IMG/VR virus record: IMGVR_UViG_3300049381_000011
Span: 31,942 to 95,941 of that record
Length of the DNA: 64,000 nucleotides
Strand: one strand, 5' to 3'
Source of the DNA: a virus
Lineage: Duplodnaviria > Caudoviricetes
A program made the position numbers and the translations under genes. The notes beneath the pieces were generated by a model. It was given only the letters and a program-made list of their open reading frames with translations. It searched no databases and was not told the DNA's origin. Shown here one piece after another: positions 11,151 to 63,975 of the stretch. The stretch's first letter is position 1, and every line of letters starts with the position of its first letter.

Positions 11151-11230
11151 GACATGTTGACGATTTACCGCTTTCCGGTTAATGTAAAGACACCCGGGCG
11201 CTGGAACGCCCACCACGACCAGGAGGAACC
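11151..11230 (+). promoter_or_regulatory. Shared promoter (TTGACG-17-TAATGT) plus CTGGAA hairpin and RBS
   Basis: Matches copies at 27089, 29967 and 63935. Confidence 0.75.
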
Positions 11231-11232
11231 CC

Positions 11233-11586
11233 ATGGCACGTGAACTCAGCCCCCTCGCCCAGGCCGCGAAGACCGTCCGGGCGCAGATCAAGGTCGACCG
11301 GGCCGCAGGCAAGTACGAAGGCCTGCCCGCCGAGGTGAAGATCTCCGTACGGTCCGAGACCGCGAGCATGTACTCCAACCTGGCCATCGACCTGAGCGGC
11401 GTCCCCATCCAGTGGGGATGGGAGCACGGCGGCAAACCCGCGCCGGCGCTGAAGAAGATCGCTGAGGCGCTCGCCGACCTGGGTCGCGAGCACGCACCCT
11501 CGCACTCCTGGGTGAGCGTCACCGAAGACGACGCGCTGAGCCTCGCCAGCCGCTACATGGAGGGATGGCAGCCCGGTCGGGACTGA
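11233..11586 (+). CDS. Hypothetical moron-like protein
   Basis: Own promoter, AGGAGG RBS and terminator; opposite strand to head genes. Confidence 0.7.
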   Translation: MARELSPLAQAAKTVRAQIKVDRAAGKYEGLPAEVKISVRSETASMYSNLAIDLSGVPIQWGWEHGGKPAPALKKIAEALADLGREHAPSHSWVSVTEDDALSLASRYMEGWQPGRD

Positions 11587-11590
11587 CCGT

Positions 11591-11638
11591 CACGTCAGGC
11601 GCCCTGGGCTGAACGTCTGGCCTGGGGCGCCTGACGTG
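11591..11638 (+). terminator. Hairpin terminator
   Basis: cacgtcaggcgccc...gggcgcctgacgtg. Confidence 0.6.
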
Positions 11639-11721
11639 TCAGCACTGGCCACGTTATTCCGATTTATCGCCAGACGGAAAGTGTGAGACTACATACAGCG
11701 TCCCACGTAAGGAGCAAAGCA

Positions 11722-12843
11722 ATGCCCGATCCATACATGCGAATTGATGACCTGTTCAGTCCGGCGCTGCTCGCCGCGTCACTCGCGACTGGTCACGTCC
11801 GTCAACAGCTCCACCCGACCGAACCCCTGGCGATCCTCAACTACACCGAGATCTGCCAGTACACGAACGTGTGGGACGAGGTGACCTTCGCCTGCCGTGG
11901 CCTGATCTTCAACACCCAGACCCGCCAGATCGTCGCCCGCCCGTTCCCGAAGTTCTTCAACCACGGCCAGACCGGCGCCCCCGACATTCCGCTGAACGCT
12001 GCCGTCGAGGTGACCGACAAGGCCGACGGCAGCATGGGCATCCTGTACGAGCTGCCCTCCGGCGGCCACGCGATCGCGACCCGGGGCTCGTTCACCTCCG
12101 ACCAGGCGCTACACGCGACCGAGGTGTGGGACACCCGCTACATCGACCAAGTCACGCCGCTGCCCGGCACCACCGCACTATTCGAGATCATCTACCCGGC
12201 GAACCGGATCGTTGTCGACTACCGCGACGTCGACGACCTGGTCCTGCTCGGCGGAGTACAGATCGCCGACGGCATCAACCTGTCACCACAGATCATGCGA
12301 GCGGCGATCGGCTGGACCGGCCCGCTGATCGCCGTCATGCCCTACGCGACCCTCGCCGAGGCGCTCGCCGCCGAACCCCGCCCGAACAGCGAGGGCCTCG
12401 TCGTCACCTGGCCCGGCGGCGGCTGGTCACGGGTGAAGGTCAAGCAGGAGGACTACGTCCGGCTGCACCGCATCGTCACCGGCCTGACAGCCCGGGTCAT
12501 CTGGGAGCACCTGGCCCAGGGCCTGCACCTGCTGGAGCTGATCGCCGGCCTGCCCGACGAGTTTCACGCCTGGGCCCGCGCCGTCGCCGACTCGCTGGAG
12601 TCCGAGGTCCAGGACCACCACGAACGGATCACGAAGGAATACGCGGGGATCATCGACGAGATGCGGTACGCCGAAACGCTCGAGCGCCGTGACTTCGCCG
12701 ACCGGGTCGCTGACCACCCCGACAAGTGGGCGTTGTTCTTCCTCCTGGACCAGCGTGACATCCGCCCTGGTCTGTGGCAGATGGTCCGTCCGGCGGCGGG
12801 GTGGACACCGTCAGGGCGCACGTACAGCGACGCCGTAGCCTGA
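11722..12843 (+). CDS. T4 Rnl1-family RNA ligase
   Basis: CRGLI, RPFPKFFN, motif I KADGS, ATRGSF, FEIIYPANRIVVDY, EGLVV, KVKQEDY. Confidence 0.9.
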   Translation: MPDPYMRIDDLFSPALLAASLATGHVRQQLHPTEPLAILNYTEICQYTNVWDEVTFACRGLIFNTQTRQIVARPFPKFFNHGQTGAPDIPLNAAVEVTDKADGSMGILYELPSGGHAIATRGSFTSDQALHATEVWDTRYIDQVTPLPGTTALFEIIYPANRIVVDYRDVDDLVLLGGVQIADGINLSPQIMRAAIGWTGPLIAVMPYATLAEALAAEPRPNSEGLVVTWPGGGWSRVKVKQEDYVRLHRIVTGLTARVIWEHLAQGLHLLELIAGLPDEFHAWARAVADSLESEVQDHHERITKEYAGIIDEMRYAETLERRDFADRVADHPDKWALFFLLDQRDIRPGLWQMVRPAAGWTPSGRTYSDAVA

Positions 12844-12877
12844 CCCACCTGGCAGCCCGACCGCCACCCCCACGGGG

Positions 12878-14539
12878 CTACGGTCGGGCTTCGTCGTCTG
12901 CCGGCCCGGGCCCGGGCTCGCCTGGCTTGCCGGGTGCGGTGTCGCCGGCGACACCGGTGCCTGGGTCGGCAACCGGCGGCGGGGCGTCCTCCTCACGGAT
13001 CCGGATCACCTCCTGCTCGATCTTCTTCGCATCCCAGTCCGGATGCAGCCTGCTGACAAGGGTGTGGACGGACGCGGCCCGGGCGCTGGCGAGCAGCTGC
13101 AGCGTTGTCGCCTCCTGCTGCGGGTCGACCGCCACCCCGTCCGGCCAGTTGACCTTCGGCATCGCGGCGACCATGCCGTCCTTGCCGAACTGTTTGATGT
13201 CGATTTCCTGCATGGCGTAGGCCAGCCGGGCGATCGGCCCCCGCGCGTACAGGAGTTTCTTTCCCCTGGTCCGGTACGAGGCTGCCTCCCGCGCGACCAC
13301 TTCCGTTGCTGTCGCGGCGACCTCGTCAGCCTCACCGAACGTTTGCGTGGAGTAGCCGGATCCGCGCAGGATCTGCGCCACCAGCTGCGTGCACGTACGG
13401 TCGTGCTGCTCGACTCTGATTTCAAACTGGACGTGCTCCAGCTTCATGCCGCCTTCGGTGGAGTCGATCAGGTCGACGCCGGTGAAGACCTCCTGCTCCA
13501 GGTCAAACGTCGCGCCGGCGCCACGACCAGCGGTCCGTAGGTAGGACTTCGGGACGATGATCCTGCCCTTGCCCAGGCGCAGGTCACGCATCCATGACGT
13601 CCACGCCTCGTCGAGGGCGTCCATGAGCGGCTCGACACCCTGGTAGTCCGACCGGCCCAGCGGCGACCCGCGCAGAATCCGGTTCGGGCGCATGTTCGGC
13701 AGGTACTCGACTGCCATACCGGTAGCACCGGTCACGATCGTCGTCCCGTCGGCCGGGTCGACGAGCAGAGCGAACGCCGTCGTTTCCGGATGCGCGGTCA
13801 GCGGCATCCGATGGCCGAGTTTCCCCTCGTCCGTCGACCTGTACAGAGCGTGTTGGACCTGGGCGGCGCGGTGGTATTCGAGGTGGCGCCACCAGTACTT
13901 GCTGTCGGTGCCCTCCAGCCGTTCCAGATGCCGCCAGAACGTCACCCCGACGAGCTGCTGGCCACGCCACTCCGGCACAGCAGCGTCAGGTGGGATCGCG
14001 TCGAGCAGCGGATGCGCGGCGACGACCGGGTCCCAGCGGACGCGTAGGTAGGCGCCGCCGTACGCCGCGGCGATCTCGCCAGCCTCCAACCAGATCGCCT
14101 GCGCGTTGGCCAGTTCCAGGATGTCGTTCAGCCGGTCTTTCGTCGGGTTCGTTGCCGGGCCCGCATCATCGTCCGGTTCCTCGCCGCCCAGCGTGGGGAA
14201 CAGGAATTCGGGTGGCTCACCGAACAGCAGGTCCGCGGACGTTGCCGCGACGTCACCGGCGAGCGGGATGTGGAGCTTGTGCTGTTTGGTTGATCCGGCG
14301 CCGGGTGGGCTGCCCCAGAACCGGCGCTGGATCCCGCGGGCGATCGCCGTCACGAACCGGGCGCCGGCCGGCTGCCCGGTCGGGAGCTCGCTACCGGGCC
14401 CGAACCCTGGCGTGTCCTGGTAGACGGCGGCGAGCTCTTCCGGGTCGCCGCCGTACCAGGCACCCCATTGCGCGTACAGCTTGTTCGCCGCGGCCGTCGA
14501 CGGCGGTGGCCACGCGACGTTAGTGACGGGCAGCGGCAT
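12878..14539 (-). CDS. Phage portal protein
   Basis: KLHIPLAGDVAATSADLLFGEPP, LGRSDY, LDEAWTSWMRDLRLGKGRIIVP, TATEV. Confidence 0.9.
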   Translation of the reverse strand: MPLPVTNVAWPPPSTAAANKLYAQWGAWYGGDPEELAAVYQDTPGFGPGSELPTGQPAGARFVTAIARGIQRRFWGSPPGAGSTKQHKLHIPLAGDVAATSADLLFGEPPEFLFPTLGGEEPDDDAGPATNPTKDRLNDILELANAQAIWLEAGEIAAAYGGAYLRVRWDPVVAAHPLLDAIPPDAAVPEWRGQQLVGVTFWRHLERLEGTDSKYWWRHLEYHRAAQVQHALYRSTDEGKLGHRMPLTAHPETTAFALLVDPADGTTIVTGATGMAVEYLPNMRPNRILRGSPLGRSDYQGVEPLMDALDEAWTSWMRDLRLGKGRIIVPKSYLRTAGRGAGATFDLEQEVFTGVDLIDSTEGGMKLEHVQFEIRVEQHDRTCTQLVAQILRGSGYSTQTFGEADEVAATATEVVAREAASYRTRGKKLLYARGPIARLAYAMQEIDIKQFGKDGMVAAMPKVNWPDGVAVDPQQEATTLQLLASARAASVHTLVSRLHPDWDAKKIEQEVIRIREEDAPPPVADPGTGVAGDTAPGKPGEPGPGPADDEARP

Positions 14540-14711
14540 CGTCCGTCGTCTCCTTGCGTCGCTTGCGGCCGGTCATCATGCGGTGGCGGTAGCGCCACGA
14601 GTACGACCCGGTGTCCTCGTCACGGATGAGCTGGAATTCGGGTTTGCAGTCGCATTTGTCGTTCGCGCGATGCTGGCCGGCTTCCGCGTACGGGATGTAG
14701 TGAGCCGTCAT
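14520..14711 (-). CDS. Small hypothetical protein (CxC)
   Basis: MTAHYIP...HRANDKCDCKP; overlaps portal start. Confidence 0.45.
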   Translation of the reverse strand: MTAHYIPYAEAGQHRANDKCDCKPEFQLIRDEDTGSYSWRYRHRMMTGRKRRKETTDDAAARH

Positions 14712-15600: not shown

Positions 15601-15678
15601 GGCGGGCGGGCCTTTCGTGATGGGATCCGACAGTCAGCCACCGGAGGCGGCCGCGACGGCGGGCAATAGGTTGGGCTG

Positions 15679-16640: not shown

Positions 16641-17006
16641 ATGGCAAAACGCATCGAAACGAGCCCCGACATCGCCCGGGCCGCCGGCGGGTACCTGCGC
16701 GCCAACGGCCTGGGCGACAACGCCGAAACAGCCATCCCCGCAGTCGCCACGCGAATCACTGACTACCGCCCGGAAGCGGTCCCAGACAAGTCGGTCACGC
16801 TGTCCGCGCTCGCCCTGCTGTCCGAGATCCGCACCGTGTACGACCGGCGCGAGCTGGTCCTGATCGACCACGCCCGCCAGCTGGGCGCCACATGGGACGA
16901 GATCGGACGGATGCTCGGCTACAACCCGACCATCCAGGGCGCCGCACAGCGCCGTAAGACCCTCGCCGAGCTCTACCTCCAGGAGGTCACCAGTGAGCAC
17001 CACTGA
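16641..17006 (+). CDS. HTH DNA-binding protein
   Basis: ARQLGATWDEIGRMLG...QGAAQR; AAGGAG RBS; cgtaaa..tttacg palindrome upstream. Confidence 0.7.
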   Translation: MAKRIETSPDIARAAGGYLRANGLGDNAETAIPAVATRITDYRPEAVPDKSVTLSALALLSEIRTVYDRRELVLIDHARQLGATWDEIGRMLGYNPTIQGAAQRRKTLAELYLQEVTSEHH

Positions 17007-24727: not shown

Positions 24728-24943
24728 CTACTTGTCTTCGGCGGGGGGTCTGGCCAGGCCGTGGGTGGCGATCGCGACGCCGAGGTCGCGCCACCCTTCC
24801 GCGACGGCCAGGAGCCGGCTCGCTTCGCCGATGCTCTCGCAGCTCTCGGCCTGGGCGAGCAGGACGGCTGCCCGTTCGGCGCAGGTGTGCCGGTCGACTG
24901 CCTGCGACTGTGGGACGGCGACGGGTGTCTCAGACGTCGTCAT
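24728..24943 (-). CDS. Small hypothetical protein
   Basis: ATGA overlap with terL. Confidence 0.5.
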   Translation of the reverse strand: MTTSETPVAVPQSQAVDRHTCAERAAVLLAQAESCESIGEASRLLAVAEGWRDLGVAIATHGLARPPAEDK

Positions 24944-26256
24944 AGGATGATCTTGTCCTTGATGTAGGGCCGCCAAAGCGACTCGGTGGTGTGGACGCCA
25001 TAGCGGAGCGCGTCGCAGCTGTGGTCATCGGCCTTGATCGGGACGTCTTCGCCCTTCTGGGCCTTCTCGTCATCCCAGCTGTAGCCCGGGATTTCGTCGA
25101 TCAGGCCGCGGCACGACTCGTGGACCAGCAGCCGGAAGTTCGCGAGCAGCGTCGCGACGTTCCGGATGCCGTCCAGGACGTTGTTGCGTGCTTTCGTCGG
25201 CGTGAGGTCGTCCTCGAACAGCTGGACGATGAACGACCTGGCGGACGGGTCGACGCAGATGTACTCCGGGTCGATCCCCCGCTGCGGGACGAGTAGCCCT
25301 GTCGCCGCATCCGGTGTGCCGGTGCCGGGGATCTCGTGGTTGGCCAGCCAGCGCTGGATCGACACGCTGTACTGCGCGTCGGTTTTGCTCTTGTGCGCCT
25401 GCTTGGCGTCGTAGCGGTATTCGCTGGTCGCGTACAGGCGCTGGTCGACGCCCATGCCGAGCGAGATCGCCGAGAACGGGTTGGAGGTGCCGTAGTCGAC
25501 GCCGACGGACAGCCAACGGTCCATGATCGGGAGCCGGTTGACGACGTGGCGGGACTCGTCCCACATGTCGTAGATCGCACCCTCAGCGGCGACCCAGTGC
25601 CCGAGGACGAAGCGGCGGAAGTAGAGGCCCACGAATTGGGCTTTGATCGCTGCTTTGAATTCCGGGTCGAGGAACGGGTTGTCGTCCAGGGTGAAGTGCC
25701 AGTGCCGCAGCCGGGTGTCCTGCGGCCGCAGGATGAAGTCTTTGCGCAGCCAGTGCGACGGGTTGTCGGGGTTGGTGGTGGCGAACAGCATCGCCCCGCG
25801 GACGCTCATGCGGCCCAGGAGCTGGGTCCAGAACTCGCGCGGTACGAGGGTCGCCTCGTCGACGTAGGCGCCGGCCACCGTCATGCCTCGCAGGCGGGTT
25901 TCCGCCCGGGCGTCGTTAGCTCCGATGATGTCGACGACCCTGCCGAAGATCCACGCCTGGTTAGAGCCGGGCGTGTAGTGGATCTCGTCGGCGATCGGTC
26001 CGAACAGCGCCGGGTCCTGCAGCACGGAGAACAGGTTCCGGTTGATCGTGTCCTTGGTGCGGCCGACCATGACCAGGCGGCCGCCGAGCGGCGCGTTACG
26101 GACGTACAGCACCCAGCGCAGCAGCGACGCGACCGTCTTGCCGGCACGGATCGCGCCGGTCCACACGTTGACGCGGGCCCGCGCCTGCCGGATCGACGCG
26201 AGTTGTGCCAGTGACAGCGGCGGCGCGGCGCGGAGCTCGTCGTAGGCGACGGTCAT
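24940..26256 (-). CDS. terL: Terminase large subunit (PBSX family)
   Basis: GAIRAGKT, YVDEAT, TTNPDNPSHWL, GVDYGTSNP, VDPSA, DDHSCDALRY. Confidence 0.95.
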   Translation of the reverse strand: MTVAYDELRAAPPLSLAQLASIRQARARVNVWTGAIRAGKTVASLLRWVLYVRNAPLGGRLVMVGRTKDTINRNLFSVLQDPALFGPIADEIHYTPGSNQAWIFGRVVDIIGANDARAETRLRGMTVAGAYVDEATLVPREFWTQLLGRMSVRGAMLFATTNPDNPSHWLRKDFILRPQDTRLRHWHFTLDDNPFLDPEFKAAIKAQFVGLYFRRFVLGHWVAAEGAIYDMWDESRHVVNRLPIMDRWLSVGVDYGTSNPFSAISLGMGVDQRLYATSEYRYDAKQAHKSKTDAQYSVSIQRWLANHEIPGTGTPDAATGLLVPQRGIDPEYICVDPSARSFIVQLFEDDLTPTKARNNVLDGIRNVATLLANFRLLVHESCRGLIDEIPGYSWDDEKAQKGEDVPIKADDHSCDALRYGVHTTESLWRPYIKDKIIL

Positions 26257-26834: not shown

Positions 26835-27088
26835 GACGGTTCACACCCCTTGACGGCGAGCACGGGGCACGGCAGCCGTCAACGTGATGTGAGTGGCGAC
26901 CCGGTGCCCGACCGGGACAGCCCCGGATTCAGTCCGGGTGAGACGCGGCAGCGCCCGGGGTGCCGATGATTGGGCACACTCCGGGCGCTGCGTAAGGCGT
27001 TGGATGGATCCTGACGGGTTGGCGGGTGGTCGTCAAGCGTGTCGCGGTTTGGTGTGTTTTCTGGTCCACCAAAACCAGACATAATCGT

Positions 27089-27172
27089 GCACATGTTATT
27101 GACGATTTAACGGGTTGGGGATAGAATTGATCTACACCCGGGGTGCTGGAACACCCCACCTGACCAGGGAGA
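27089..27172 (+). promoter_or_regulatory. Shared promoter (TTGACG-17-TAGAAT) plus CTGGAA hairpin
   Basis: 21-mer gcacatgttattgacgattta identical at 27089, 27487 and 29967. Confidence 0.8.
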
Positions 27173-27178
27173 ACACCT

Positions 27179-27427
27179 GTGGATATCAAGACTCAGTGGA
27201 CGATTCAGACGAGCGAGACGTTCTCCGCGCTGATCCCGCTGGCCGAAATCGCCGAGCAGCTGCAGGAGACCGAGGAGGAGACTTTGCGCCTGGTGGCGGC
27301 CGGCGAGGTCGAGGCGCACGACCGTTGGTCCGAAACCGTGCTCAGCGGCCGCGAGACCGAGGACATCTCCGTCTACTTCGCCGTTGACGAGCGCTCCATC
27401 GACGAGATGGGGCCGCACCTGTTCTGA
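27179..27427 (+). CDS. Acidic hypothetical protein
   Basis: Promoter-hairpin-RBS cassette with terminator. Confidence 0.65.
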   Translation: MDIKTQWTIQTSETFSALIPLAEIAEQLQETEEETLRLVAAGEVEAHDRWSETVLSGRETEDISVYFAVDERSIDEMGPHLF

Positions 27428-27434
27428 TGATCGG

Positions 27435-27477
27435 TCGGGGGTTCGGGCAGGTCATGCGGCTTGCCCGAACCCCCCGA
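27435..27477 (+). terminator. Hairpin terminator
   Basis: tcgggggttcgggca...tgcccgaaccccccga. Confidence 0.6.
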
Positions 27478-27486
27478 ATATATCCC

Positions 27487-27525
27487 GCACATGTTATTGA
27501 CGATTTAACTCTGGGCGGTTACTAT
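27487..27525 (+). promoter_or_regulatory. Shared promoter (TTGACG-17-TACTAT)
   Basis: Identical 21-mer. Confidence 0.8.
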
Positions 27526-27556
27526 AGACAAAGAAGCCACCCCCGAAGGAGCCCCC

Positions 27557-27808
27557 ATGCTGGACCTGGACCTGGCCACACAGATCAAGAAGCTCCACAC
27601 CGCCACCTACGGCATGGTCACCCCCGCCCGGACGGCAACGCCCCTCATCGACGACGACGCGATCACCGCCGCGCACATGCTCGTCAACGGCAAGCCGGAC
27701 GAGGCCCGCGAACTGTTCGGCAGCAACGGACGCCTGGGCGGCGCGCTCCTGCGCCAGCTGCAGAACCTCCAGTACCTCCAGGCCCACGGCGAGCACATCC
27801 AAGCCTGA
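27557..27808 (+). CDS. Hypothetical protein
   Basis: AAGGAG RBS. Confidence 0.65.
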   Translation: MLDLDLATQIKKLHTATYGMVTPARTATPLIDDDAITAAHMLVNGKPDEARELFGSNGRLGGALLRQLQNLQYLQAHGEHIQA

Positions 27809-27870
27809 CCGGACCAGGGGCGGGCACTGCCCGCCCCTCCCGCACCGAACGCGCAGGGGAGGAACCGACA

Positions 27871-28311
27871 ATGTTCGAGCAGTTCACCACTGAAGTCATC
27901 CCCCACTGGCACGACTTCGGCTCCGGCCGCACATGCGCGAGCTGCCAGGCCACCGATTTCAGCTGGGGCACATACCTGCTCGGCTCAGAAGCGGAGACGA
28001 CTGTCGCCTGCTACCCGTGCGGCGCCCGGTACCGCGACGAATACGACTGGCCACTGATCCAGATCGACGTCACCCCCGAAGCCGAGCAGACGCTGTACGA
28101 GGCGATCAGCGTCCAAGCTGCCGAGCTCAACCGGCTCGCGAACGCGACCTACGGCATGGACGGCCGCGACGAGACGACGATCGAAGCGGCGCTGCAGTGG
28201 ATGGCCGGCGAGCACGCCCTGGCCGTCGCGATGGTCGGCACCCTCCGCGCTGACCTGCTAGCCGCGATCGTCGACGAGATGGACAACCTCAACTGGCTCA
28301 GCAACAGCTGA
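27871..28311 (+). CDS. Hypothetical protein with two CxxC
   Basis: GGAGG RBS; CASC, CYPC. Confidence 0.65.
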   Translation: MFEQFTTEVIPHWHDFGSGRTCASCQATDFSWGTYLLGSEAETTVACYPCGARYRDEYDWPLIQIDVTPEAEQTLYEAISVQAAELNRLANATYGMDGRDETTIEAALQWMAGEHALAVAMVGTLRADLLAAIVDEMDNLNWLSNS

Positions 28312-28363
28312 CCGCGATCCGCCCGGGCGCTGGAACGCCCACCCCCCGACCAGGAGGCAACAC

Positions 28364-28882
28364 GTGATCACAGCAACGACGACCATCGGCCAGCAGCTCG
28401 CCGGCGAGATCGTCACCATCGGCCGGAGCCTGTACCCGGACGTCGCCGAGCGCGTCGACCGGGCGTTCGGAACGGTCGGGGTCGCGCTCGCCCGCCTGGT
28501 CGAGGCGGGGCACGTCGTCGACGTCACCGAGTCGGGAGTGGCCAGCATGCGAGCGGCCGTCCACCACCTGCACCAGGAGGTCGGCGAACACGCGCTCGGC
28601 GCCGGCTGTCTTCTGTGCGGCCCTGCCGGTCAGCTGGACGTCGACGTTGCCGGAACGCGTATGGCACCTGACCTGATCTCGACCGAGCTGGAGCGGTACG
28701 AAGGCCGGCTGGAGTCGATCCACATCATCGCGATGCGGAAGGGGCTGTCGGAGTGGGAGGTCGTCGAGGTGTATGTGCACGGTGACGTGTCCGGTCCGGA
28801 GACTGTCTGGACAGCGTGGTCGACGGCGGCGATCGCGCAGCGCGTCCAGTGCGCTGTCGACCGTGGGTTCGCTGTGGTGTGA
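28364..28882 (+). CDS. Hypothetical protein
   Basis: CTGGAA hairpin and AGGAGG upstream. Confidence 0.65.
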   Translation: MITATTTIGQQLAGEIVTIGRSLYPDVAERVDRAFGTVGVALARLVEAGHVVDVTESGVASMRAAVHHLHQEVGEHALGAGCLLCGPAGQLDVDVAGTRMAPDLISTELERYEGRLESIHIIAMRKGLSEWEVVEVYVHGDVSGPETVWTAWSTAAIAQRVQCAVDRGFAVV

Positions 28883-28953
28883 CCTCGGCAGGAGAGCAGT
28901 AACGTCATCAACCACACGAGGCGCTGGAACGCCCACTACCCGAGGAGACCAGG

Positions 28954-29496
28954 ATGTCGACCCCCACCGCTGGCCAGCAGCTCGCCGCGACGGTTCACGA
29001 TGGATCGCCCTACTGCATCGGTCACCATGACGCGGATGGCGAATGCGTCGAAGCCTCTCCCTGCGACCCCCGCTGCCTGGGCCATCACGGCAAGCCTGTG
29101 CCCTGCACCCCGTGCCCCCAGTCGCGGTGCGTCGAACACGACACTGCCGGCTGCGCAGACCTGTGCCAAAGGATCTACTGCACCGGCCACGAAATGGACG
29201 ACGACGAGGACCTGTGCTGCATCATCGCCAAGCACGCGCCCTGGTGCCCGCCGGCATGCCGCGCCCACGGGACCGACGGCGAGCACGAGCTGGACCTCGG
29301 CAACGACGTCGTCATCTACAGCGAGCTGCTCGAACCCAGTACATACATGTGCGTCTCACTCGACGACAGCGCCCACGATGTCGCCGACGCCGACGCGCTG
29401 ATCGCCAAGACCGAAGCGATCCTGGCTGCGATGCGCACAGCCAGGATGATCCTCGCGGTGGAGGCAGCCAGCGCGGCCGCGCTGCAGCTCCCCTGA
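28954..29496 (+). CDS. Cys/His-rich hypothetical protein
   Basis: About 15 Cys in repeated CxxxCxxH units; hairpin leader. Confidence 0.6.
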   Translation: MSTPTAGQQLAATVHDGSPYCIGHHDADGECVEASPCDPRCLGHHGKPVPCTPCPQSRCVEHDTAGCADLCQRIYCTGHEMDDDEDLCCIIAKHAPWCPPACRAHGTDGEHELDLGNDVVIYSELLEPSTYMCVSLDDSAHDVADADALIAKTEAILAAMRTARMILAVEAASAAALQLP

Positions 29497-29534
29497 ACGC
29501 CACCGAGGCGCGAAACGCTCGATACCGTCGTCGC

Positions 29535-29930
29535 ATGCGACAAGAAGCTGTTGCGACGTCGACGCCGGCGACGCCCACACCCGGACCGCCGTCCCTCAGC
29601 ACCTATGACGACAGCGCTGTCCTTTGGGGCGCGTGGTCGTACTCCCCGACGCTGAGCCATTACCCGGAAGCCTGCCCGAATGCGCGCTGTGGCTACACCG
29701 GGCCGTCGCTCGTGACTGTCGGAGTTGTCCAACCGCTGCTCAATGAGGTTTTCATCGGTGAGGTGCGGGCGGACGGCGTCACGCAGTTGGTGGAGGTTCT
29801 TCCTCTGGCTCGTCTGATCGCGTTCCGGTGTGAGGTGTGCGCGAACCAGCGGATCTACGACCGGTGGGGCGGCGCTGGCGGGGAGTTCGTCGAGATCGAC
29901 GGTGAGGGTACGCAGGAGACCCTGTTCTGA
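29535..29930 (+). CDS. Zn-ribbon hypothetical protein
   Basis: CPNARC, CEVC; ends QETLF. Confidence 0.5.
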   Translation: MRQEAVATSTPATPTPGPPSLSTYDDSAVLWGAWSYSPTLSHYPEACPNARCGYTGPSLVTVGVVQPLLNEVFIGEVRADGVTQLVEVLPLARLIAFRCEVCANQRIYDRWGGAGGEFVEIDGEGTQETLF

Positions 29931-29966
29931 CCTGCGTCGGACGTATCATCTCAGCCCGTAAAACGG

Positions 29967-30050
29967 GCACATGTTATTGACGATTTACCGGCATACGTGT
30001 AGCGTGAACATCACCGGGCACTGGAGAGCCCCACCACGACCAGGGAGAGA
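29967..30050 (+). promoter_or_regulatory. Shared promoter (TTGACG-17-TAGCGT) plus variant hairpin
   Basis: Identical 21-mer; gggc-a-ctggag-a-gccc. Confidence 0.8.
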
Positions 30051-30052
30051 AC

Positions 30053-30466
30053 ATGAACGACATCGCCAACGCGGACCAGGCCACCAACCCGCTCGCAGCC
30101 CACCAGGCCGCCGCAACACACGCCGTACGGCTCGCCGCGCTGCTCCCGGCAGACGAGATCCGCGGGCACTTCTACCGGCACGACGGCTCGCCGACCAACC
30201 GGTGGGCGCTCGTCACCCTGTACGCCAACAGCTGCGAGCACGCCGACCTGGCCGCGACGCTCAACCCGTCGCCGTGGGCCATGAAGATGCTGAACTGGGC
30301 GGTCCGCGCGCTGGCCGGAATGGTGGAGCGGTCCGGGGCGGTCGACCTGGCGCACATCGACGCGCTGGCCGAGGACGCCGCTCGCGAAGAGGCGATGCTC
30401 GCGGCCGTCACGCCCGATCGGCCCCTTACTGGCATCTTCTCGACGCCGTGGCTTCCGAACGTCTGA
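30053..30466 (+). CDS. Hypothetical protein
   Basis: Cassette leader. Confidence 0.65.
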   Translation: MNDIANADQATNPLAAHQAAATHAVRLAALLPADEIRGHFYRHDGSPTNRWALVTLYANSCEHADLAATLNPSPWAMKMLNWAVRALAGMVERSGAVDLAHIDALAEDAAREEAMLAAVTPDRPLTGIFSTPWLPNV

Positions 30467-30585
30467 TCCGCAGGCCGAAACACATCGCCGGGAGGCAGAC
30501 GTGTCGGACGGTGGATCCGTCCCCGATGAGGCCATCGGTCCGTACCGCCAGGGCGCTGGAACGCCCACCCGACCAGGAGGAACGC

Positions 30586-31146
30586 ATGCCCCACACCACC
30601 ACCCCGACGCTCGCCGAGCTGGCCACCACCATCAACACACTGTGGACCGGCCTGCCCGCCAACATCCGGAACGTCGAGGCTGGATTCCTGCGTACCGAGC
30701 TGGAGCTCGCGTCGCTGATCGCATCGGGCACCGTGACCGGCGTGAGCGCCGACGGCATCACCACGCTGCAGCAGACCGCCGCGTACCTCCAGATGCGCCA
30801 CGACGACGGGACCGTCGTCCCCCGGATGGCGCTGGCCACCATCACCGACCCGGAGCCTGCCGGCGAGTCGGTCATCTACACCCACCGCGCCACCGCCAAG
30901 CGCTTCGCCCTGGTCCACGTTGGCCGCGGCCGCCCGGTCATGGCAAAGGCCGGCGACCGGGTCGAGAACGCCGACGGAGCCGAGGTTGAGCTGTCCCCCG
31001 TCGCGGCGACGATCATCCCTGTCCCCGATGACCAGCCGACCTACATCGTCTGCCGGTTCATCGACGAGGACGACGACGTCAACGATGAGGATGCGTACGT
31101 GAAAGCCCACGAATTCACCGGCCTGGTCTGGGTCGCGATCAACTGA
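30586..31146 (+). CDS. Hypothetical protein
   Basis: CTGGAA hairpin and AGGAGG. Confidence 0.65.
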   Translation: MPHTTTPTLAELATTINTLWTGLPANIRNVEAGFLRTELELASLIASGTVTGVSADGITTLQQTAAYLQMRHDDGTVVPRMALATITDPEPAGESVIYTHRATAKRFALVHVGRGRPVMAKAGDRVENADGAEVELSPVAATIIPVPDDQPTYIVCRFIDEDDDVNDEDAYVKAHEFTGLVWVAIN

Positions 31147-33536: not shown

Positions 33537-34586
33537 ATGTCGACGATCACGGGGGGTCAGGTGTGGGACCCGTACTACGGGTTGACTCGGGACTGGCGAC
33601 CGGTCGGCCCGGTCGTCAACGAGTACGGGTTCTACACCGCGACCAGCGCCGACGACTTCGTGTGTCTGGGTGTGCTGGGTAACACGGCGCACTGGGATCG
33701 GCCGGACGGGCAGGATCACACGTCGCGGGCGACGGGTACGACGACGGATCTGGCTGGGCGGACGTTGTCGCCGAAACCTGGCTGGGTCTACGCGATCGAC
33801 GGGACCGTGCCGGAGCCGCTGCGGTTCGAGGGCTGGCTCCTGGGCCGGCTACGGGCCGGCGTGTACGCGCACCTGGTCAAATACTTCAACATCAACAATC
33901 GGCATTGGAACCGCAAGCAGGTCAAGAACGGTGTCCTGTTCGCGTCGGCGGTGTCGTCGAGCGACACCCACCTGCACATGTCCTTCATGCCCGATCAGGA
34001 GTACGCGACCAGCTCGATCCTCGCCGACTACGAGGTGTGGCGCACGACGGGCGTGGTCGTGCCCGGGCAGCGGCCGGCGCCGCAGGCTGAGCAGATGACG
34101 ATCGCCGAGCTCGCCGCGGGCTGGCTCCGGACGGTGAGGTCTGGCAACACCGGTCGTGTGGTTCGGATCCTGCAGGGGCTCCTGCTCGGGCACGGCTACG
34201 GGGTCGGTGACCGGTCGGCGATCGACGGCAGGTGCGGGCCGAACACCACCGCGAGGTTGAAGGCGTTCCAGGTCGACCACCAGGTGGCGAACAGTGTCGT
34301 CGACGGGCACGGCGACGGGGTCGGGGGCCGGCAGTCGTGGCTGGTCCTGATCACGCCGAACCTGCCGACGGTCATCTACGGCTCCGATGGCCTGCCCGTG
34401 AAGCTCCTGCAGGGGCTGTTGTGCGCGCAGGGCTACCCGACGGCGGTCGACGGGCGAGCAGGCCCGGACACCATCGGGAAGCTGAAGGCGTTCCAGGTCG
34501 ACCACCGGGTCGCGAACAGTGTCGTGGGCGGTCGCGGCGACGGGATCAGCGGCCGGCAGTCGTGGCTGGCGGCTTTGAGGCCCTGA
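33537..34586 (+). CDS. Endolysin-like protein: putative Zn-peptidase domain plus two peptidoglycan-binding domains
   Basis: DH...AID...HLHMSF; duplicated V..LQGLL..GY...DG..GP.T...LKAFQVDH...DG..GRQSW. Confidence 0.75.
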   Translation: MSTITGGQVWDPYYGLTRDWRPVGPVVNEYGFYTATSADDFVCLGVLGNTAHWDRPDGQDHTSRATGTTTDLAGRTLSPKPGWVYAIDGTVPEPLRFEGWLLGRLRAGVYAHLVKYFNINNRHWNRKQVKNGVLFASAVSSSDTHLHMSFMPDQEYATSSILADYEVWRTTGVVVPGQRPAPQAEQMTIAELAAGWLRTVRSGNTGRVVRILQGLLLGHGYGVGDRSAIDGRCGPNTTARLKAFQVDHQVANSVVDGHGDGVGGRQSWLVLITPNLPTVIYGSDGLPVKLLQGLLCAQGYPTAVDGRAGPDTIGKLKAFQVDHRVANSVVGGRGDGISGRQSWLAALRP

Positions 34587-35268: not shown

Positions 35269-35946
35269 ATGACCAGCAACAACGCACTCAAGAAGCAGAT
35301 CCGAGCCCGGATGGCCGAGACCGGCGAGCCGTACACCGCCGCCCGGTCCGCGCTCCTGACCGCCGAACGGCCGGCGATCGACCCGCAGCTGCTCGCCCCT
35401 TACCCGTACGAGCTGATCCGCCCGGCCACCGCCGGCGACAACTGGAAGCCGCCGACCACCGAAGAGCTGGGCTGGCGAGCCCTGCCAGCCGACGCGACCC
35501 CCCAGCAGCGCGCCACCGCCGAGTCGTACTGGCGGCCTGTGAACCCCGACCTCCCATGCCGCTGCTCCGGACCATGTGCCCACGGCACCGAGTGCGAATA
35601 CGCCCCCGACTGCCCCGGCCGGCTCTGGCACAGCGACCGCCGCGCCTACCTCAGCAGCAGCCCCGACCTCCTCATGTGGCACGACCTCTACATCTGCAGC
35701 GGCGACTGCGGCGACGATCTGGAAGACGTCGCCATCACGACAGTGCCGTGGGGCCGACGCGTCGCAGGCGAACTGCGCCTGTTTCCTGGCATCCGACGTG
35801 CCGACGTCCTGCCCGCCGAGTGGCAGTGCACGGAGTGCGGCGCGGCGAACCAGTATTACTGCGGCTGCCGCGACATGAACGACCCCGACGAGTGCGAGGA
35901 ATGCGGCGCCACCGGCCCGTACGCCTGTGGCTGCAATGAAGACTGA
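35269..35946 (+). CDS. Cys-rich hypothetical protein
   Basis: N-term KKQIRARMAETGEPYTAAR; multiple CxxC. Confidence 0.65.
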   Translation: MTSNNALKKQIRARMAETGEPYTAARSALLTAERPAIDPQLLAPYPYELIRPATAGDNWKPPTTEELGWRALPADATPQQRATAESYWRPVNPDLPCRCSGPCAHGTECEYAPDCPGRLWHSDRRAYLSSSPDLLMWHDLYICSGDCGDDLEDVAITTVPWGRRVAGELRLFPGIRRADVLPAEWQCTECGAANQYYCGCRDMNDPDECEECGATGPYACGCNED

Positions 35947-36514
35947 TCCGGACCCGACGATCGCCCTCAGCCGCGGCCTCGCTGTGTTCGGCCTGCCGGC
36001 CGGTGAGCGGAGGGCCTTGCCCGGCTGGCAGGGCCACTGCATCCGTACCGTCGACGAGCTCGCGCTGCGATGGCGGCCGGGGGACAACCTCGGGATCGGC
36101 TGCCGCGAGTCGAATGTCGTCGGCGTCGACCTGGACCGCAAGGATGGAAAGGACGGCGTCGCCGAGCTGGACCGGCTCGCCGCGGCCGCCGGCGCGGGCT
36201 GGCCAGACACGCTCACCGTGGCGACGCCGAACAACGGCCTGCACCTGTACTTCCGCATGCCGGCTGGGATCGCGGTCCCGTCGACCACCGGAAAGATCGG
36301 CCCCGGGATCGACGTCCGCGCCCCGGGCCGCCGCCAGGGCGGCTACCTCATCGGCCCAGACTCGGTGGTCGGCGGCCGCCGGTACACGATCGAGCACGAT
36401 GTTGCCGCGGCGATCCTGCCCGGGTGGCTCGCCAGGCTGGTACGAGCCGGCCGGCGACCAGCGACGTCGAAGCTGCCCGGGTGGACTACTTCGCCGGGCA
36501 GCTTCGCGAAGTAG
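35936..36514 (+). CDS. Bifunctional DNA primase/polymerase (Prim-Pol) domain protein
   Basis: GLAVFGL, NLGIGC, VDLD, TPNNGLHLYF, GIDVRA, GYLIGPDS. Confidence 0.85.
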   Translation: MKTDPDPTIALSRGLAVFGLPAGERRALPGWQGHCIRTVDELALRWRPGDNLGIGCRESNVVGVDLDRKDGKDGVAELDRLAAAAGAGWPDTLTVATPNNGLHLYFRMPAGIAVPSTTGKIGPGIDVRAPGRRQGGYLIGPDSVVGGRRYTIEHDVAAAILPGWLARLVRAGRRPATSKLPGWTTSPGSFAK

Positions 36515-53942: not shown

Positions 53943-54910
53943 GCAGGTGCTCCGGGCGCCGGTGTGGTTACCGCGGTGCGGGGGTAGCAGCCGTGCATCG
54001 GCGTAGTCGACGGGTCGACGGGGCAGCGGTTGTCGAGCTGGTGCGTGATGGATGCGCAGAGCGCGGCGCCGTGCTGCAGCCCGTACGTGCGGGGGTAGCG
54101 GGTGAGGATCGCTACCGACCAGCGTCCGTCGACGATGGCGAGGCAGTTGACGTGCCATTCGTCGCCGTGAGGGGTCCAGCCGTTCTTGTAGACGACGTCG
54201 ACATCGGGCAGCGCGTCGACGATGCCGAAGCGGCCCTCCCCGCTGATGTCGTGCATGGTCTGCAGGAGCCAGGGTGTCCAGGCCGGACCGGCGGCGGTGC
54301 CGTCGGCGATGCACACGCCCAGGTGTGCGGCCGCGGTGGCGTCGATCTCGGTGAGTGACCACCAGTGGTGGTGGATGGTGATGTTGTGCAGGCCGCAGGT
54401 TTTGATCATCCGGTCGATGACGAGGTCGTAGCCGCCGGATCCGTAGATGTCCTGGGCTGCGTCGTCGTCACTGTCGATGATCATGGTGCGGATTTGGTCG
54501 AGGCGCCGTTCGGTGACGGTCGGGTGCGAGTGCAGGTAGTCCGCGGCGATCCAGGCTTTGATCATCGACTCGGTTGTGGTTGTCTCGCCGGCGTTGTCCG
54601 ATGAGGCGACCACCTGGCCGGTGTCGACGTCGGCGAGCGCCCACGACACCCAGCCGGCGTCAGCGGGGACGGTGATGGCGGTCGGGGCGGTCAGCGAGTA
54701 TTCGGAGCTGAGCGGGCCCTGCGCGCTGGACCGGGTCGGCGTCGCCGGCGGGAGCACCTCGGTGTCGAGGGACGAGCCGATGAGGATGGTCGGGATGGCG
54801 ATCGCGGCGATGAGTAGGAGAACGACGGCGACCGCGGCCGTCCGGGCTCGGCTGGTGTGGGGGGTGGGCCCGAAGAGCCGCAGCAGCGCTTCGGGCATGG
54901 CGGACCACAT
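53939..54910 (-). CDS. Membrane-anchored serine beta-lactamase/PBP-like hydrolase
   Basis: N-terminal TM; SMIK (SxxK), SDD, KNG; AGGAGG RBS. Confidence 0.75.
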   Translation of the reverse strand: MWSAMPEALLRLFGPTPHTSRARTAAVAVVLLLIAAIAIPTILIGSSLDTEVLPPATPTRSSAQGPLSSEYSLTAPTAITVPADAGWVSWALADVDTGQVVASSDNAGETTTTESMIKAWIAADYLHSHPTVTERRLDQIRTMIIDSDDDAAQDIYGSGGYDLVIDRMIKTCGLHNITIHHHWWSLTEIDATAAAHLGVCIADGTAAGPAWTPWLLQTMHDISGEGRFGIVDALPDVDVVYKNGWTPHGDEWHVNCLAIVDGRWSVAILTRYPRTYGLQHGAALCASITHQLDNRCPVDPSTTPMHGCYPRTAVTTPAPGAPA

Positions 54911-55130
54911 AGTTCCTCCTGGTAGGTCGGGCGCGGGTTCCCTGACGCGCCGGACGTTTCGACCATAGGTCCTAAAAGTGGAGGTTCTGTGCAGCGTCGC
55001 CGCGTCGTGGTGGCGCTGGTTCCCGGATGTGACCGTCCGGTCGGGGCGGCGCACCGACCGGTCAGACCACCTCGGACGCGGGAAGGGCGGACGTCAGATC
55101 TGACGTCCGCCCTTTTCGGTCTTGCCGTTT

Positions 55131-61284: not shown

Positions 61285-61294
61285 CCCTCCAGTG

Positions 61295-61830: not shown

Positions 61831-62039
61831 GAGATCTTCATGTGAGTTAGTGTGACATAGCCTTGACACTCTGGGTACTTTAGATACTGTAAAGATCTTG
61901 ACCTTTGACCGGTCGTGATCAATGTGTACCGTCCTCACAGTGTGCAACACATCGGCGTTTGGCTGCAGGAGAATCTCCGTGCCATCGTCTCGTTCCGACA
62001 CTGCAATGCGAAAATTGATCAATCGAGAGTGGAGGCGCG

Positions 62040-62309
62040 GTGACGGATGGGCAACCCATGACCATGAGCGAAGCGGTCGCGTACACCGGTTTGTCCAGGT
62101 CAACCGTGCAACGCCGAGTCGATCTGTGGCAAACAGGCGACCGGACGGCGGCAGCGCTCAAAGGCGGGCGCACGCACGGCACCCATGGTGAGCGGCGGGT
62201 GGACCCAGTCGACGCCGAGCGGGCACGACTGCAACTAGCTGGCGAGCTGCCAGGCACGGTGACACCGGACGAGTATCTGCAGATGGTGCGGGCACGGGAC
62301 GGTTCCTGA
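62040..62309 (+). CDS. Excisionase/HTH-like regulator divergent from transfer operon
   Basis: MTMSEAVAYTGLSRSTVQRRV; GGAGG RBS. Confidence 0.65.
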   Translation: MTDGQPMTMSEAVAYTGLSRSTVQRRVDLWQTGDRTAAALKGGRTHGTHGERRVDPVDAERARLQLAGELPGTVTPDEYLQMVRARDGS

Positions 62310-62496
62310 CCGTACGGACGATCACGACGGCCGGTGCCTCACAGGCGACCGGCCGTTACTGTGTGTGGCGGAATGTTGTCGTCGTCGGCGACGACGACAA
62401 CGGGTGGCATGCGAACAACCCCGTGTTTGCGCTGTTCGGCAGCGTCAGACACGGGGTTTTCTGTTGTCGTCGTCGCCGACGACGACAACGCGTCGG

Positions 62497-62865
62497 TTAC
62501 TGAGGGTGCATGTCGCTGATTTCGCTGATCGTCTCGCCGACGTGGGATTCGAGGATGGACAGCAGCTCCGTCGGAACGTTCGTGCTCGCCTGCCGGCCCT
62601 CCCAGTCGGTCACCGTGATCTCCAGCCAGTCGGCTGATTCGAGGTACCAGCCGGCGAACGTCCGGGTCGTGATCGATCCTCCGTCGAGCTGGATCGTTCT
62701 CGGCTGGCTGATGTGCGCCTCGTTGTCGATCTCCTCGTCGTCGTTGACGCACCAGTCCGGGTGGTCGACGTCAGGAGCATCGTCGTCGGCATCCGGATCC
62801 TCGTCATCGTCGTCCGGGTCGTCGTAGTCGATGATTCCCATCCTCGCCGGATCCTCGTCGATCAT
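62497..62865 (-). CDS. Acidic hypothetical protein
   Basis: ATGA coupling; HPDWC. Confidence 0.55.
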   Translation of the reverse strand: MIDEDPARMGIIDYDDPDDDDEDPDADDDAPDVDHPDWCVNDDEEIDNEAHISQPRTIQLDGGSITTRTFAGWYLESADWLEITVTDWEGRQASTNVPTELLSILESHVGETISEISDMHPQ

Positions 62866-63530
62866 GACGTGCGGCCTTGCTGGCGGGGCACGGCCAGCCC
62901 CCGGCGGTTGGACCGGGCGAGCAGCGACGCGGTGACGATGAGTCCGGCCACGACGGGCAGGAGGAGCAGCGCCAGGCCTGGGCTCTGGTAGGACAGGTGA
63001 GCCGTCACGAACAGTGTCGGGGCGACGAGCCCGGCACAGATCAGCGCGGCCACGCTACGGCCGTTGCCGGTTGCCTTTTCGGCTGGCGCCGGCCTGGACT
63101 GTCGGCGGGGGGCGGGCGCAGCGGGCGCGGCCGGCGGCGTCGACGCCTCGGCGGGCTCGCTGGCCCAGGCGGTCAGCAGGGTGAAGTCTTCGTCGCGCAG
63201 GAGGTCGCGGGCGAGGATCGCGAGCGCCAGAATGGCGGCGATGTCGTCGAACTCGGTGAGCGCGCCGAGGTCGGCGAGGTGGGGGTCGTCGACGCCGACG
63301 ACCTTGTGGTCGGGGGTGACGCGGCCGCTGGCGTAGATGGCCAGCTCGGCACGCTCGGCCGCGTCGATGAACGTCGAGCGGCTGTCCAGGTATTTGATGG
63401 TCAGCTCGTCGGACTCGGCGTCGGTCATGGCGTACATGGCTGCGGCGTAGTCGGTGTAGGCAGCGAGGGTTTCGGGGCTGGCGGGGATGAGGACGTGCTC
63501 GAGGCTGGACATGATCGGCTCCCGGGTCAC
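62862..63530 (-). CDS. Membrane hypothetical protein
   Basis: Two C-terminal TMs. Confidence 0.55.
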   Translation of the reverse strand: MTREPIMSSLEHVLIPASPETLAAYTDYAAAMYAMTDAESDELTIKYLDSRSTFIDAAERAELAIYASGRVTPDHKVVGVDDPHLADLGALTEFDDIAAILALAILARDLLRDEDFTLLTAWASEPAEASTPPAAPAAPAPRRQSRPAPAEKATGNGRSVAALICAGLVAPTLFVTAHLSYQSPGLALLLLPVVAGLIVTASLLARSNRRGLAVPRQQGRTS

Positions 63531-63889
63531 TGGGTGGGGGTGTCGGAGGGTGCGGGCCTGCGCCAGGTCACTCCTGCGCCCACGATCAGGCCGCAGGCTA
63601 TCGCGCCGGCGGCGGCGATGGCAGTCATGAGACGGATGTTCGTGGGCGCCCAGCTGCGGGCGGCGGCCAGCGCGCCGGCGGCGGCGAGCAGGAGCGTGGC
63701 GCCGATAGCTGCGAGGCGGCGCATGATCCGGTTGTACTGGGCTGCGGTGTACCGCTCGGACGGACTGGGCCTGCGTAGGAGCAGCAGTTGCAGCGCGCTG
63801 CTACGGCGGCGGATCGGGAGCCGGTTGCCGCGGACTGCGGGGAGCCGGTCGTGGGCGGCGGGTAGCTGGCGGACGGGTGTGGCGGTCAA
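63527..63889 (-). CDS. Two-TM hypothetical protein
   Basis: AGGAGG RBS with hairpin leader. Confidence 0.6.
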   Translation of the reverse strand: MTATPVRQLPAAHDRLPAVRGNRLPIRRRSSALQLLLLRRPSPSERYTAAQYNRIMRRLAAIGATLLLAAAGALAAARSWAPTNIRLMTAIAAAGAIACGLIVGAGVTWRRPAPSDTPTQ

Positions 63890-63892
63890 CGT

Positions 63893-63975
63893 GGCCTCCT
63901 GGTCGAGGGTGCGCCTTCCAGGGCGCGTCCATCTACGCTAACCGTACGGCTGTAAATCGGCAATATGTTGTGCAC
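63893..63975 (-). promoter_or_regulatory. Shared promoter (TTGCCG-17-TAGCGT) plus GCGCC-CTGGAA-GGCGC hairpin
   Basis: Same architecture as 11151 and 27089. Confidence 0.75.

Follow-up and report, generated by a model that had tools for sequence, protein, structure and literature searches.

The stretch of DNA analysed here, called the window below, comprises 64,000 nucleotides of a virus record from IMG/VR (IMGVR_UViG_3300049381_000011; 95,941 bp, 68% G+C, estimated completeness 93%) and corresponds to positions 31942-95941 of that record, that is, to its right two thirds. Judging from its terminase, portal and MuF-like genes, the record is that of a tailed phage. The subject of this report is a short leader element that recurs ahead of start codons in this genome and consists of a hairpin with a nearly fixed loop, followed by a conserved box at the ribosome-binding site. 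Coordinates refer to the window unless they are marked as genome positions, and gene calls were derived in this analysis from GC-frame statistics. An original prediction, made from the letters of the window, had proposed seven such hairpins; all seven lie where it had placed them, each accompanied by GACCAGG and a start codon. They are listed with their covariance-model scores, SD standing for Shine-Dalgarno.

11196..11235, + strand: element 1, hairpin GGGCG-CUGGAA-CGCCC (11196-11211), linker ACCAC, box GACCAGGAGG (11217-11226), start codon ATG at 11233; 54.1 bits
27140..27181, + strand: element 2, hairpin GGGGUG-CUGGAA-CACCCC, linker ACCU, box GACCAGGGAG, start codon GUG at 27179; 52.8 bits
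28325..28366, + strand: element 3, intercistronic, hairpin GGGCG-CUGGAA-CGCCC, linker ACCCCCC, box GACCAGGAGG, start codon GUG at 28364; 52.9 bits
28920..28956, + strand: element 4, an intercistronic outlier, hairpin GGCG-CUGGAA-CGCC, SD sequence GAGGAG, box GACCAGG, start codon ATG at 28954; 39.8 bits
30016..30055, + strand: element 5, with a variant loop, hairpin GGGC-ACUGGAGA-GCCC, linker CACCAC, box GACCAGGGAG, start codon ATG at 30053; 46.7 bits
30551..30588, + strand: element 6, intercistronic, hairpin GGGCG-CUGGAA-CGCCC, linker ACCC, box GACCAGGAGG, start codon ATG at 30586; 55 bits
63887..63926, - strand: element 7 (hairpin 63911-63926), hairpin GCGCC-CUGGAA-GGCGC, linker ACCCUC, box GACCAGGAGG, start codon UUG at 63889; 46.2 bits

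Four further copies to the left of the window, at genome positions 8352(-), 11337(-), 12107(-) and 13519(+), bring the total for the whole record to eleven. The hairpin has a stem of 4-8 bp and the loop CUGGAA, except for one CUGGAAA and one ACUGGAGA, so that CUGGA is identical in all eleven. It is followed by a C/A-rich linker of 4-11 nt and by the box (GA)CCAGG(A/G)(A/G)G, which doubles as the SD site and stands 5-10 nt ahead of the start codon. The distance from the first base of the loop to the start codon is 29-35 nt in every copy, while the ACCAGG box begins 4-15 nt past the hairpin. The spacing from CUGG to CCAG is confined to 14-25 nt, because shorter linkers accompany longer stems. 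No conserved second box was found upstream of the hairpin in the alignment of these copies. The prediction that GACCAGG overlaps or adjoins the ribosome-binding site holds for the ten copies in which box and SD site are fused; it needs correction for element 4, in which the SD sequence GAGGAG comes first and GACCAGG stands past it, adjoining the ATG at 28954. The separate SD sequence of this copy shows the GACCAGG box to be an element in its own right and not a mere SD variant. Element 3 begins 13 nt past the TGA of the preceding open reading frame (ORF).

The combination of these parts is far more frequent than expected by chance. The genome contains 11 full motifs, compared with 0.24 +/- 0.49 (maximum 2) in 100 dinucleotide-preserving shuffles, and a looser definition of the motif occurs about once per megabase of strand across 2.7 Mb of related phage and prophage loci. 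Taken singly, CTGGAA and GACCAGG are enriched throughout the window owing to coding bias, and only the combination is specific. A covariance model places the eleven copies at 40-55 bits, while the best other place in the genome reaches 18 bits. The proposal that the stems change and nevertheless keep pairing was borne out by the alignment of the eleven copies, in which five of the six stem pairs show compensatory double changes (13 cells; GC, CG, AU and UA all seen) and 85% of the stem cells are paired. Not one of 500 shuffles had a covariation score as high as that of the alignment, and when the 3' strand is displaced by 1-3 columns only 24-54% of the cells pair. Minimum-energy prediction returns the hairpin in 10 of the 11 leaders; folding energies of the leaders are ordinary for their G+C content (z from -1.7 to +1.2), and because they are unremarkable at 68% G+C the case for structure rests on covariation.

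A second genome provides the comparison between phages. IMGVR_UViG_2739368068_000001, of 83 kb, is syntenic with the record over most of its length, with proteins 30-84% identical, and is the only syntenic relative found among about 160 loci with a related terminase. It carries five copies of a recognisably homologous element. Their stems, of 6-8 bp, are unrelated in sequence to those described above, and their loops are UGCUGG (three copies), ACGCUGG and GUGCUGGAC, followed after a linker of 2-7 nt by CCAGGAGG or CCAGGGGAG and once by CCGGAGG. CUGG and CCAG (once CCGG) are thus kept while the two A's of the loop are lost, and CUGG has shifted from the 5' side of the loop to its 3' side. As a result of this shift, a 16-sequence MAFFT alignment of both genomes set the stems of the relative in the wrong register, and it was kept out of the pair counts. 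Four G.U pairs in the stems of the relative would be A.C mismatches on the opposite strand, and all 16 copies of the two genomes have the same orientation relative to the start codon; these two observations place the structure in the sense-strand RNA. Two orthologous gene pairs, with 37-40% identity, each keep the element, whereas unselected non-coding sequence would be unrecognisable at that distance.

These results show that the element is real, that it is under selection as an RNA structure of the sense strand, that it has been conserved over about 60% protein divergence, and that it is locked to start codons. The compensatory changes, the G.U pairs that fit the sense strand only, the uniform orientation and the fixed distance to the start confirm the original view of an RNA structure tied to translation starts. 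Because so distant a relative keeps it, the element is a real expression signal, and one that is uncatalogued. In the comparison of the downstream genes with the relative, which had been suggested as a check, the two orthologous pairs keep the element, and nine of the eleven genes that it serves have no homologue there.

Several hairpins of the genome resemble the element in part. Ahead of two further genes, a G/C hairpin with a different loop precedes (C)GACC..ACCAGG and an SD sequence, and these hairpins may be decayed or diverged members of the family:

54906..54959, - strand: possible degenerate relative of the element, hairpin GGCGCG-UCAGGGAACC-CGCGCC with a differing loop, then CGACCUACCAGGAGG and ATG; 18.2 bits
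48845..48897, - strand: hairpin with a 13-bp stem and a 13-nt loop

At genome 6327-6342(-), the hairpin GGGCA-CUGGAA-UGCCC has the loop of the family without CCAGG or an SD sequence directly 3' of it; it lies directly past the stop codon of the preceding gene and ahead of a second hairpin.

Most copies stand at the 5' ends of transcripts whose starts are predicted from a repeated promoter. The genome contains 14 near-identical sigma-70-like promoters of the form (A)CATGTTATTGACGATTTA-N12-TAnnnT, that is, TTGACG-17-TAnnnT. Six are in the window, at 198(-), 11157, 27099, 27497, 29977 and 63963(-), and the other eight are in genome 1-14700. Eight of the eleven hairpins start 7-12 nt past the -10 box of such a promoter, which would put them at about +1 to +5 of the predicted mRNA. 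The remaining three (28325, 28920 and 30551) are intercistronic within one operon and have no promoter of their own. Conversely, six of the 14 promoters have no CUGG-loop hairpin, and one of these, at genome 6998(-), is followed by a different hairpin. The upstream promoter word AACATGTT is an 8-bp palindrome adjoining the -35 box; the relative has a version of its own, AACATGTTGTTGACTAAAGAT, and it is possible that this palindrome is an operator for a dimeric regulator. The promoters that precede elements in the window are the following.

11157..11185, + strand: promoter of element 1, TTGACG, 17 nt, TAATGT, 10 nt ahead of the hairpin, in the divergent gap between the MuF-like gene and gene 11233-11586
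27099..27127, + strand: promoter of element 2, TTGACG, 17 nt, TAGAAT, 12 nt ahead of the hairpin, 10/12 consensus matches
29977..30005, + strand: promoter of element 5, TTGACG, 17 nt, TAGCGT, 10 nt ahead of the hairpin
63935..63963, - strand: promoter of element 7, TTGCCG, 17 nt, TAGCGT, 8 nt ahead of the hairpin

The genes served by the element encode proteins of 82-212 amino acids (aa), none of which belongs to a Pfam family above cut-off or to a PHROG family. The genes and islands that matter for the interpretation are given below, together with the virion genes used as landmarks.

11233-11586, + strand: gene of element 1, a 117-aa ORFan
11683-12843, + strand: RNA ligase gene following the gene of element 1, 386 aa, with a T4 Rnl1-type domain (PF09511, E 1e-12)
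27179..31146, + strand: accessory island with five elements and three promoters of the family
63527..63889, - strand: gene of element 7, a 120-aa ORFan whose C-terminal half is hydrophobic
genome 11462-12076, - strand: motif-bearing gene of a 204-aa Cys/His-rich protein, conserved in the relative (40% identity)
genome 13554-13901, + strand: motif-bearing gene of a 115-aa protein, conserved in the relative (37% identity)
9927-11126, - strand: MuF-like minor capsid protein
12878-14539, - strand: SPP1-type portal
24940-26256, - strand: large terminase

Element 1 heads a small plus-strand island inside the minus-strand virion module, between the MuF-like and portal genes, with the Rnl1-like ligase gene as the second gene of this antisense promoter-plus-hairpin unit. 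The ligase could be an RNA-repair or counter-defence gene. The same gap holds an opposite-strand island headed by promoter-plus-hairpin units in both phages, and the cargo is unrelated: the 117-aa ORFan and the ligase in one, a DUF6884 protein and a 218-aa ORF in the other. In a naive ORF call, the longest MuF-like ORF (9927-11522, minus strand) over-extends by about 130 codons upstream, which would make it span the promoter, hairpin 1 and the first part of gene 11233-11586. Homology to the MuF-like protein of the relative starts at residue 130, and the likely start codon is the ATG at 11126 or 11114. With this start, the promoter and the hairpin lie in a clear gap between divergent genes.

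Five copies of the element are crowded into the 4-kb island at 27.1-31.1 kb, where they serve the ORFs 27179-27427, 28364-28882, 28954-29496, 30053-30466 and 30586-31146. Pfam and PHROG gave nothing convincing for these ORFs, the only row being PF04978 for 30053-30466 at 17 bits against a cut-off of 27 bits. Small ORFans of this kind, one of them with an RNA-ligase gene next to it in its island, are typical accessory cargo.

The two conserved motif-bearing genes lie to the left of the window. The 204-aa protein has an invariant Cys/His pattern, RCxCGG...HVDACxxC...H..FC...CC..CC, and 69 homologues among 1.8 billion representatives in a HMMER search. Its AlphaFold model is confident (pLDDT 88, pTM 0.82); a fold comparison of the model gave nothing convincing (Foldseek E 0.3 or worse; best VIA Z 6.0 over 61 residues). 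The Atlas model of the 115-aa protein resembles PadR/ArsR/MarR winged-helix clusters, with TM 0.6-0.7. Its gene adjoins a gene-poor stretch of about 790 nt with several strong hairpins, in which no antisense or sponge RNA with UUCCAG or CCUCCUGG was found.

Other genes give the general context. Among those at genome 4120-6239(-) and at window 35927-36514(+) and 33537-34586(+), an AAA_24 protein and a YqaJ-like exonuclease form a recombination module, and further products are a likely lysin, which carries two peptidoglycan-binding domains, and a protein with a Prim-Pol domain. A 1434-aa ORF to the left of the window is read as the tape-measure gene from its size and its place among virion genes, and a PhoD-like phosphatase domain occurs in an 865-aa tail-region protein (L304:17123-19720).

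Among named phages, the nearest are phages of Streptomyces, with about 55% terminase identity. The record has no DNA-level match in the named phage and plasmid collections, nor does the accessory island, and no tblastn match to the conserved motif-bearing protein was found in them. Searches for the element further afield gave a similar picture. It is absent from four complete relatives of 80-85 kb, which share with the record just a few virion and other genes, and, apart from the syntenic relative, from the approximately 160 terminase loci (2.7 Mb); both contained isolated look-alikes only. One of these, in the 80-kb relative G005 at 16766-16807(+), consists of the hairpin GGCGG-CUGGUAA-CCGCC and CGCACCAGCC with an SD sequence and ATG and a downstream ACCAG, and could be due to chance or to decay of the present element. 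In IMG/VR and the GTDB species genomes, the commonest hairpin combined with GACCAGG, and likewise the promoter word ATGTTATTGACGATTTA, gave single chance matches, and none of the exact-pattern matches had a second copy or the promoter. A locus search with the 204-aa protein returned only the syntenic relative and two N-terminally truncated metagenome fragments, and nothing was found in 401 genomes of the class of G006 and four named hosts.

We propose that the element is a cis-acting module of the mRNA leader, restricted to a single lineage of actinobacterial siphophages and composed of the 4-8 bp hairpin with its fixed CUGG(A) loop, the C/A-rich unpaired linker and the ACCAGG box fused to the SD site. 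It would work as a two-part operator, in which one trans-acting reader would contact the loop and the CCAGG/SD box together. The reader would most likely be a protein encoded by the phage, a host factor or the ribosome being less likely, and it would switch the translation, and thereby the lifetime, of the mRNAs of unrelated early or accessory cassettes together. This reading, a leader operator through which a trans factor co-controls swappable cassettes, is the one we favour, giving it slightly less than an even chance. When a stem co-varies freely while its loop stays the same, a factor that reads the hairpin is the textbook explanation; this, together with the second box on the ribosome-binding site and the narrow spacing between the two, speaks for the proposal. 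We also count in its favour that the family is sharply bounded, no other place in the genome scoring near its members, that the relative and the two orthologous gene pairs keep the element, that the copies stand next to promoters or between genes of an operon, and that the served genes are small ORFans. The existence of the reader, its identity and the choice between repression and activation are points that we infer.

Several observations weigh against such an operator. Pfam scans of about 40 proteins of the phage revealed no RNA-binding domain. No match to PF02599 (CsrA) was found in the virus record at E up to 1, and none to PF08965 (Aca2_YdiL) in either phage at the same threshold. Conservation within the genome could stem in part from recent duplication of a promoter-leader cassette, and the motif is present in only two genomes, so that the fixed boxes lie beyond covariation testing. 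In addition, CUGG and CCAG are complementary, so that both could have been conserved for pairing with each other within the RNA, no protein being needed.

There are four other readings, which, like the leader operator, are not mutually exclusive; three of them, the stabiliser, the recombination anchor and the processing site, had been named in the original prediction. The CCAG word ends in the G with which the SD sequence begins. Were it to pair with the loop CUGG upstream, the leader would form a small pseudoknot that sets ribosome access without a trans factor and might tune translation or act as a thermometer-like element or as a standby structure. The two words are exact complements in 15 of the 16 copies across two diverged genomes; the lone exception, CCGG at 63135(+) of the relative, still pairs with CUGG through a U.G wobble, and at 28920 the box stays GACCAGG even though the SD sequence is placed elsewhere. 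The geometry, however, is unfavourable. No nucleotide separates the 5' strand of the stem from CUGG in the record, and just 2-3 nt join a stem of 7-8 bp to CCAG in three of the five copies of the relative, connecting segments that are too short for a canonical H-type fold (preQ1-I-like). Moreover, shorter linkers go with longer stems, the opposite of what a stem-crossing loop needs. The second helix shows no true covariation: three of its four pairs are constant, and the only departure at the fourth comes from the 28920 copy, which is misaligned. An equally good reading of the boxes is that one word, C-W-G-G-R, is present twice. We regard the pseudoknot as unlikely. Somewhat less likely still is a stabiliser or insulator at the 5' end of a primary or processed transcript, which would shield the mRNA from 5'-end-dependent RNases and keep upstream sequence from pairing with the ribosome-binding site, with no specific reader. 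Such 5' stem-loops are established stabilisers in Escherichia coli ompA, Bacillus subtilis aprE and phage SP82, and the position of eight hairpins at the predicted transcript start, their C/A-rich, G-poor and hence unpaired flanks and their prominence in the predicted leader folds agree with this role. It leaves unexplained why CUGG and ACCAGG are invariant beside a free stem and why the motif has been retained over so large a protein divergence; three copies are internal to an operon, and the six promoters without a CUGG-loop element do without it.

The remaining two readings are, in our judgement, both improbable, and to the same degree. According to one of them, the promoter, hairpin and SD sequence would serve mainly at the DNA level, as homology patches for the swapping of cassettes, with expression control being secondary. 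The nine served genes without a homologue in the syntenic relative, the unrelated cargo behind like leaders in the MuF-like/portal island of both phages, and the YqaJ-like exonuclease and AAA_24 recombination proteins encoded by the phage fit such an anchor, and the PeSL cassettes discussed below, which are likewise composite and linked to ORFans, do recombine, as mini-circles have demonstrated (PMC2839356). An anchor, however, needs sequence identity, yet the stems have diverged by compensatory change, which means selection for pairing, and the identical stretches outside the promoter measure just 6-10 bp; the G.U pairs of the relative fit one strand only, and the strict start-codon distance and the fusion with the SD site point to the mRNA. 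According to the other reading, an endoribonuclease of phage or host would cut at the hairpin and the CCAGGAGG box, either inactivating early messages, as T4 RegB does at GGAG, or maturing polycistronic RNA into hairpin-protected units. The extended SD context recalls the targets of RegB, which need GGAG plus further conserved sequence (PMC1702504), three copies (28325, 28920 and 30551) are intercistronic within an operon, and the linker is an unpaired, C-rich stretch; against this, no nuclease candidate was found among the scanned proteins, and stems of 4-8 bp are too short for RNase III.

Returning to the leader operator read by a trans-acting factor, the gene of the 115-aa protein, modelled as winged-helix-like, stands where an autoregulator would be expected, and its product is a candidate for this role, a lead and not a result. 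A more specific version of the proposal would make the hairpin and the CCAGG box the RNA operator of a new translational regulator encoded by the phage, with the winged-helix-like protein or the 204-aa Cys/His-rich protein as candidates and with a private regulon of swappable early or anti-defence cassettes, analogous but unrelated to Aca2 and CsrA; taken with all its parts, we consider this possible but rather doubtful. Through the element, eleven ORFan genes, among them the one that heads the two-gene island with the RNA-ligase gene, would be under common control, and in a scarcely annotated group of phages it is a practical means of finding genes for early host takeover or counter-defence. 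If a phage protein does read it, it would offer an orthogonal translational switch for high-G+C actinomycetes.

With regard to known systems, the original prediction had asked whether the motif is already described. Rfam 15 has no match at gathering scores anywhere in the window, and over 27000-30700 at E up to 5 it gave only chance matches that lie off the elements. The same prediction had likened the loop to CsrA-type sites. Both boxes of the record do contain GGA (CUGGAA and CAGGAG), about 18-20 nt apart, and their arrangement in a loop and an SD sequence is the two-site logic of a dimeric reader of the CsrA/RsmE kind. However, while GGA is in the hairpin loop of all eleven copies of the record, three of the five copies of the relative lose it (CUGGGC, CUGGGC and CUGGCG) and keep CUGG; the phage has no CsrA gene, and to our knowledge Actinobacteria are not known to have CsrA. 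The likeness to CsrA-type sites is not supported. An antiterminator had also been considered, and there is some likeness to lambda boxB, a short hairpin with a 5-bp stem and a phage-specific conserved loop just past early promoters. The fit is poor, since nut sites are not tied to start codons, need boxA and have GNRA-like pentaloops, whereas all 16 copies of the present element are locked to an SD sequence and a start codon.

The nearest published analogues are the leader hairpins of Aca2, the PeSL cassettes and the SAS and ESAS motifs. Aca2, which has been characterised experimentally, is a small helix-turn-helix protein from an operon it regulates, which binds promoter DNA as well as hairpins of the 5' untranslated region and blocks the ribosome (PMC13551039). 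The Aca2 and Aca1 leaders share with the present ones an RNA motif right after the transcription start (here predicted), a promoter with its own conserved DNA site, further intercistronic copies, and service to several neighbouring accessory or anti-defence operons. The differences are that neither phage has a PF08965 gene, that there is one hairpin and not two, and that the helix is the part of the RNA touched by Aca2, while the stem of the present hairpin is free in sequence. The PeSL cassettes of the T4-type phages RB49 and phi1 consist of a strong sigma-70-like promoter, a G/C stem-loop, an SD sequence and a start codon (Arbiol et al. 2010, PMC2839356), an order that recurs in eight of our eleven copies. 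In both cases, a composite unit heads ORFans in plastic regions of a large phage genome and is a candidate vehicle of cassette shuffling. The stem-loop of the PeSLs, however, lies between or over the -35 and -10 boxes and terminates upstream transcription (PMC2839356), whereas here the hairpin stands past the -10 box in the leader, with an invariant loop, a C/A-rich linker and no U-tract; furthermore, three copies have no promoter and the host phylum is another one.

The start-associated motifs SAS and ESAS of the Cluster K mycobacteriophages have been known in actinobacteriophages since 2011, without a mechanism (PMC3203893). They occur in 11-19 copies in one orientation (Pope et al. 2011, PMC3203893) and resemble the present element in that they contain the SD core, lie a few bases before the start codons of non-structural genes with sizeable upstream gaps, are conserved ahead of unrelated genes, and have an inverted repeat upstream. 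This repeat is found at about half of the sites, and the SAS is absent from the host (PMC3203893). The SAS is a 13-mer, GGGATAGGAGCCC, located 3-7 bp before the start codon (PMC3203893), and has no homology to the (GA)CCAGG(A/G)(A/G)G found here. The ESAS has arms of 17 bp that are conserved in sequence and in which departures lend no support to RNA pairing, and its authors favour a DNA-binding protein (PMC3203893); the arms of the present hairpin, in contrast, measure 4-8 bp, are free in sequence and change in a compensatory manner around a fixed loop. The element thus differs from SAS and ESAS in its covariation at the RNA level, its fixed loop and its second fixed box at the ribosome-binding site, and these same three features make the question of its reader directly testable. 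Taken together, the comparisons show that it is not a CsrA site, an SAS or ESAS, a PeSL or a nut site, and that it is of the same functional kind, namely the repeated start-associated or leader motifs of early and accessory phage genes.

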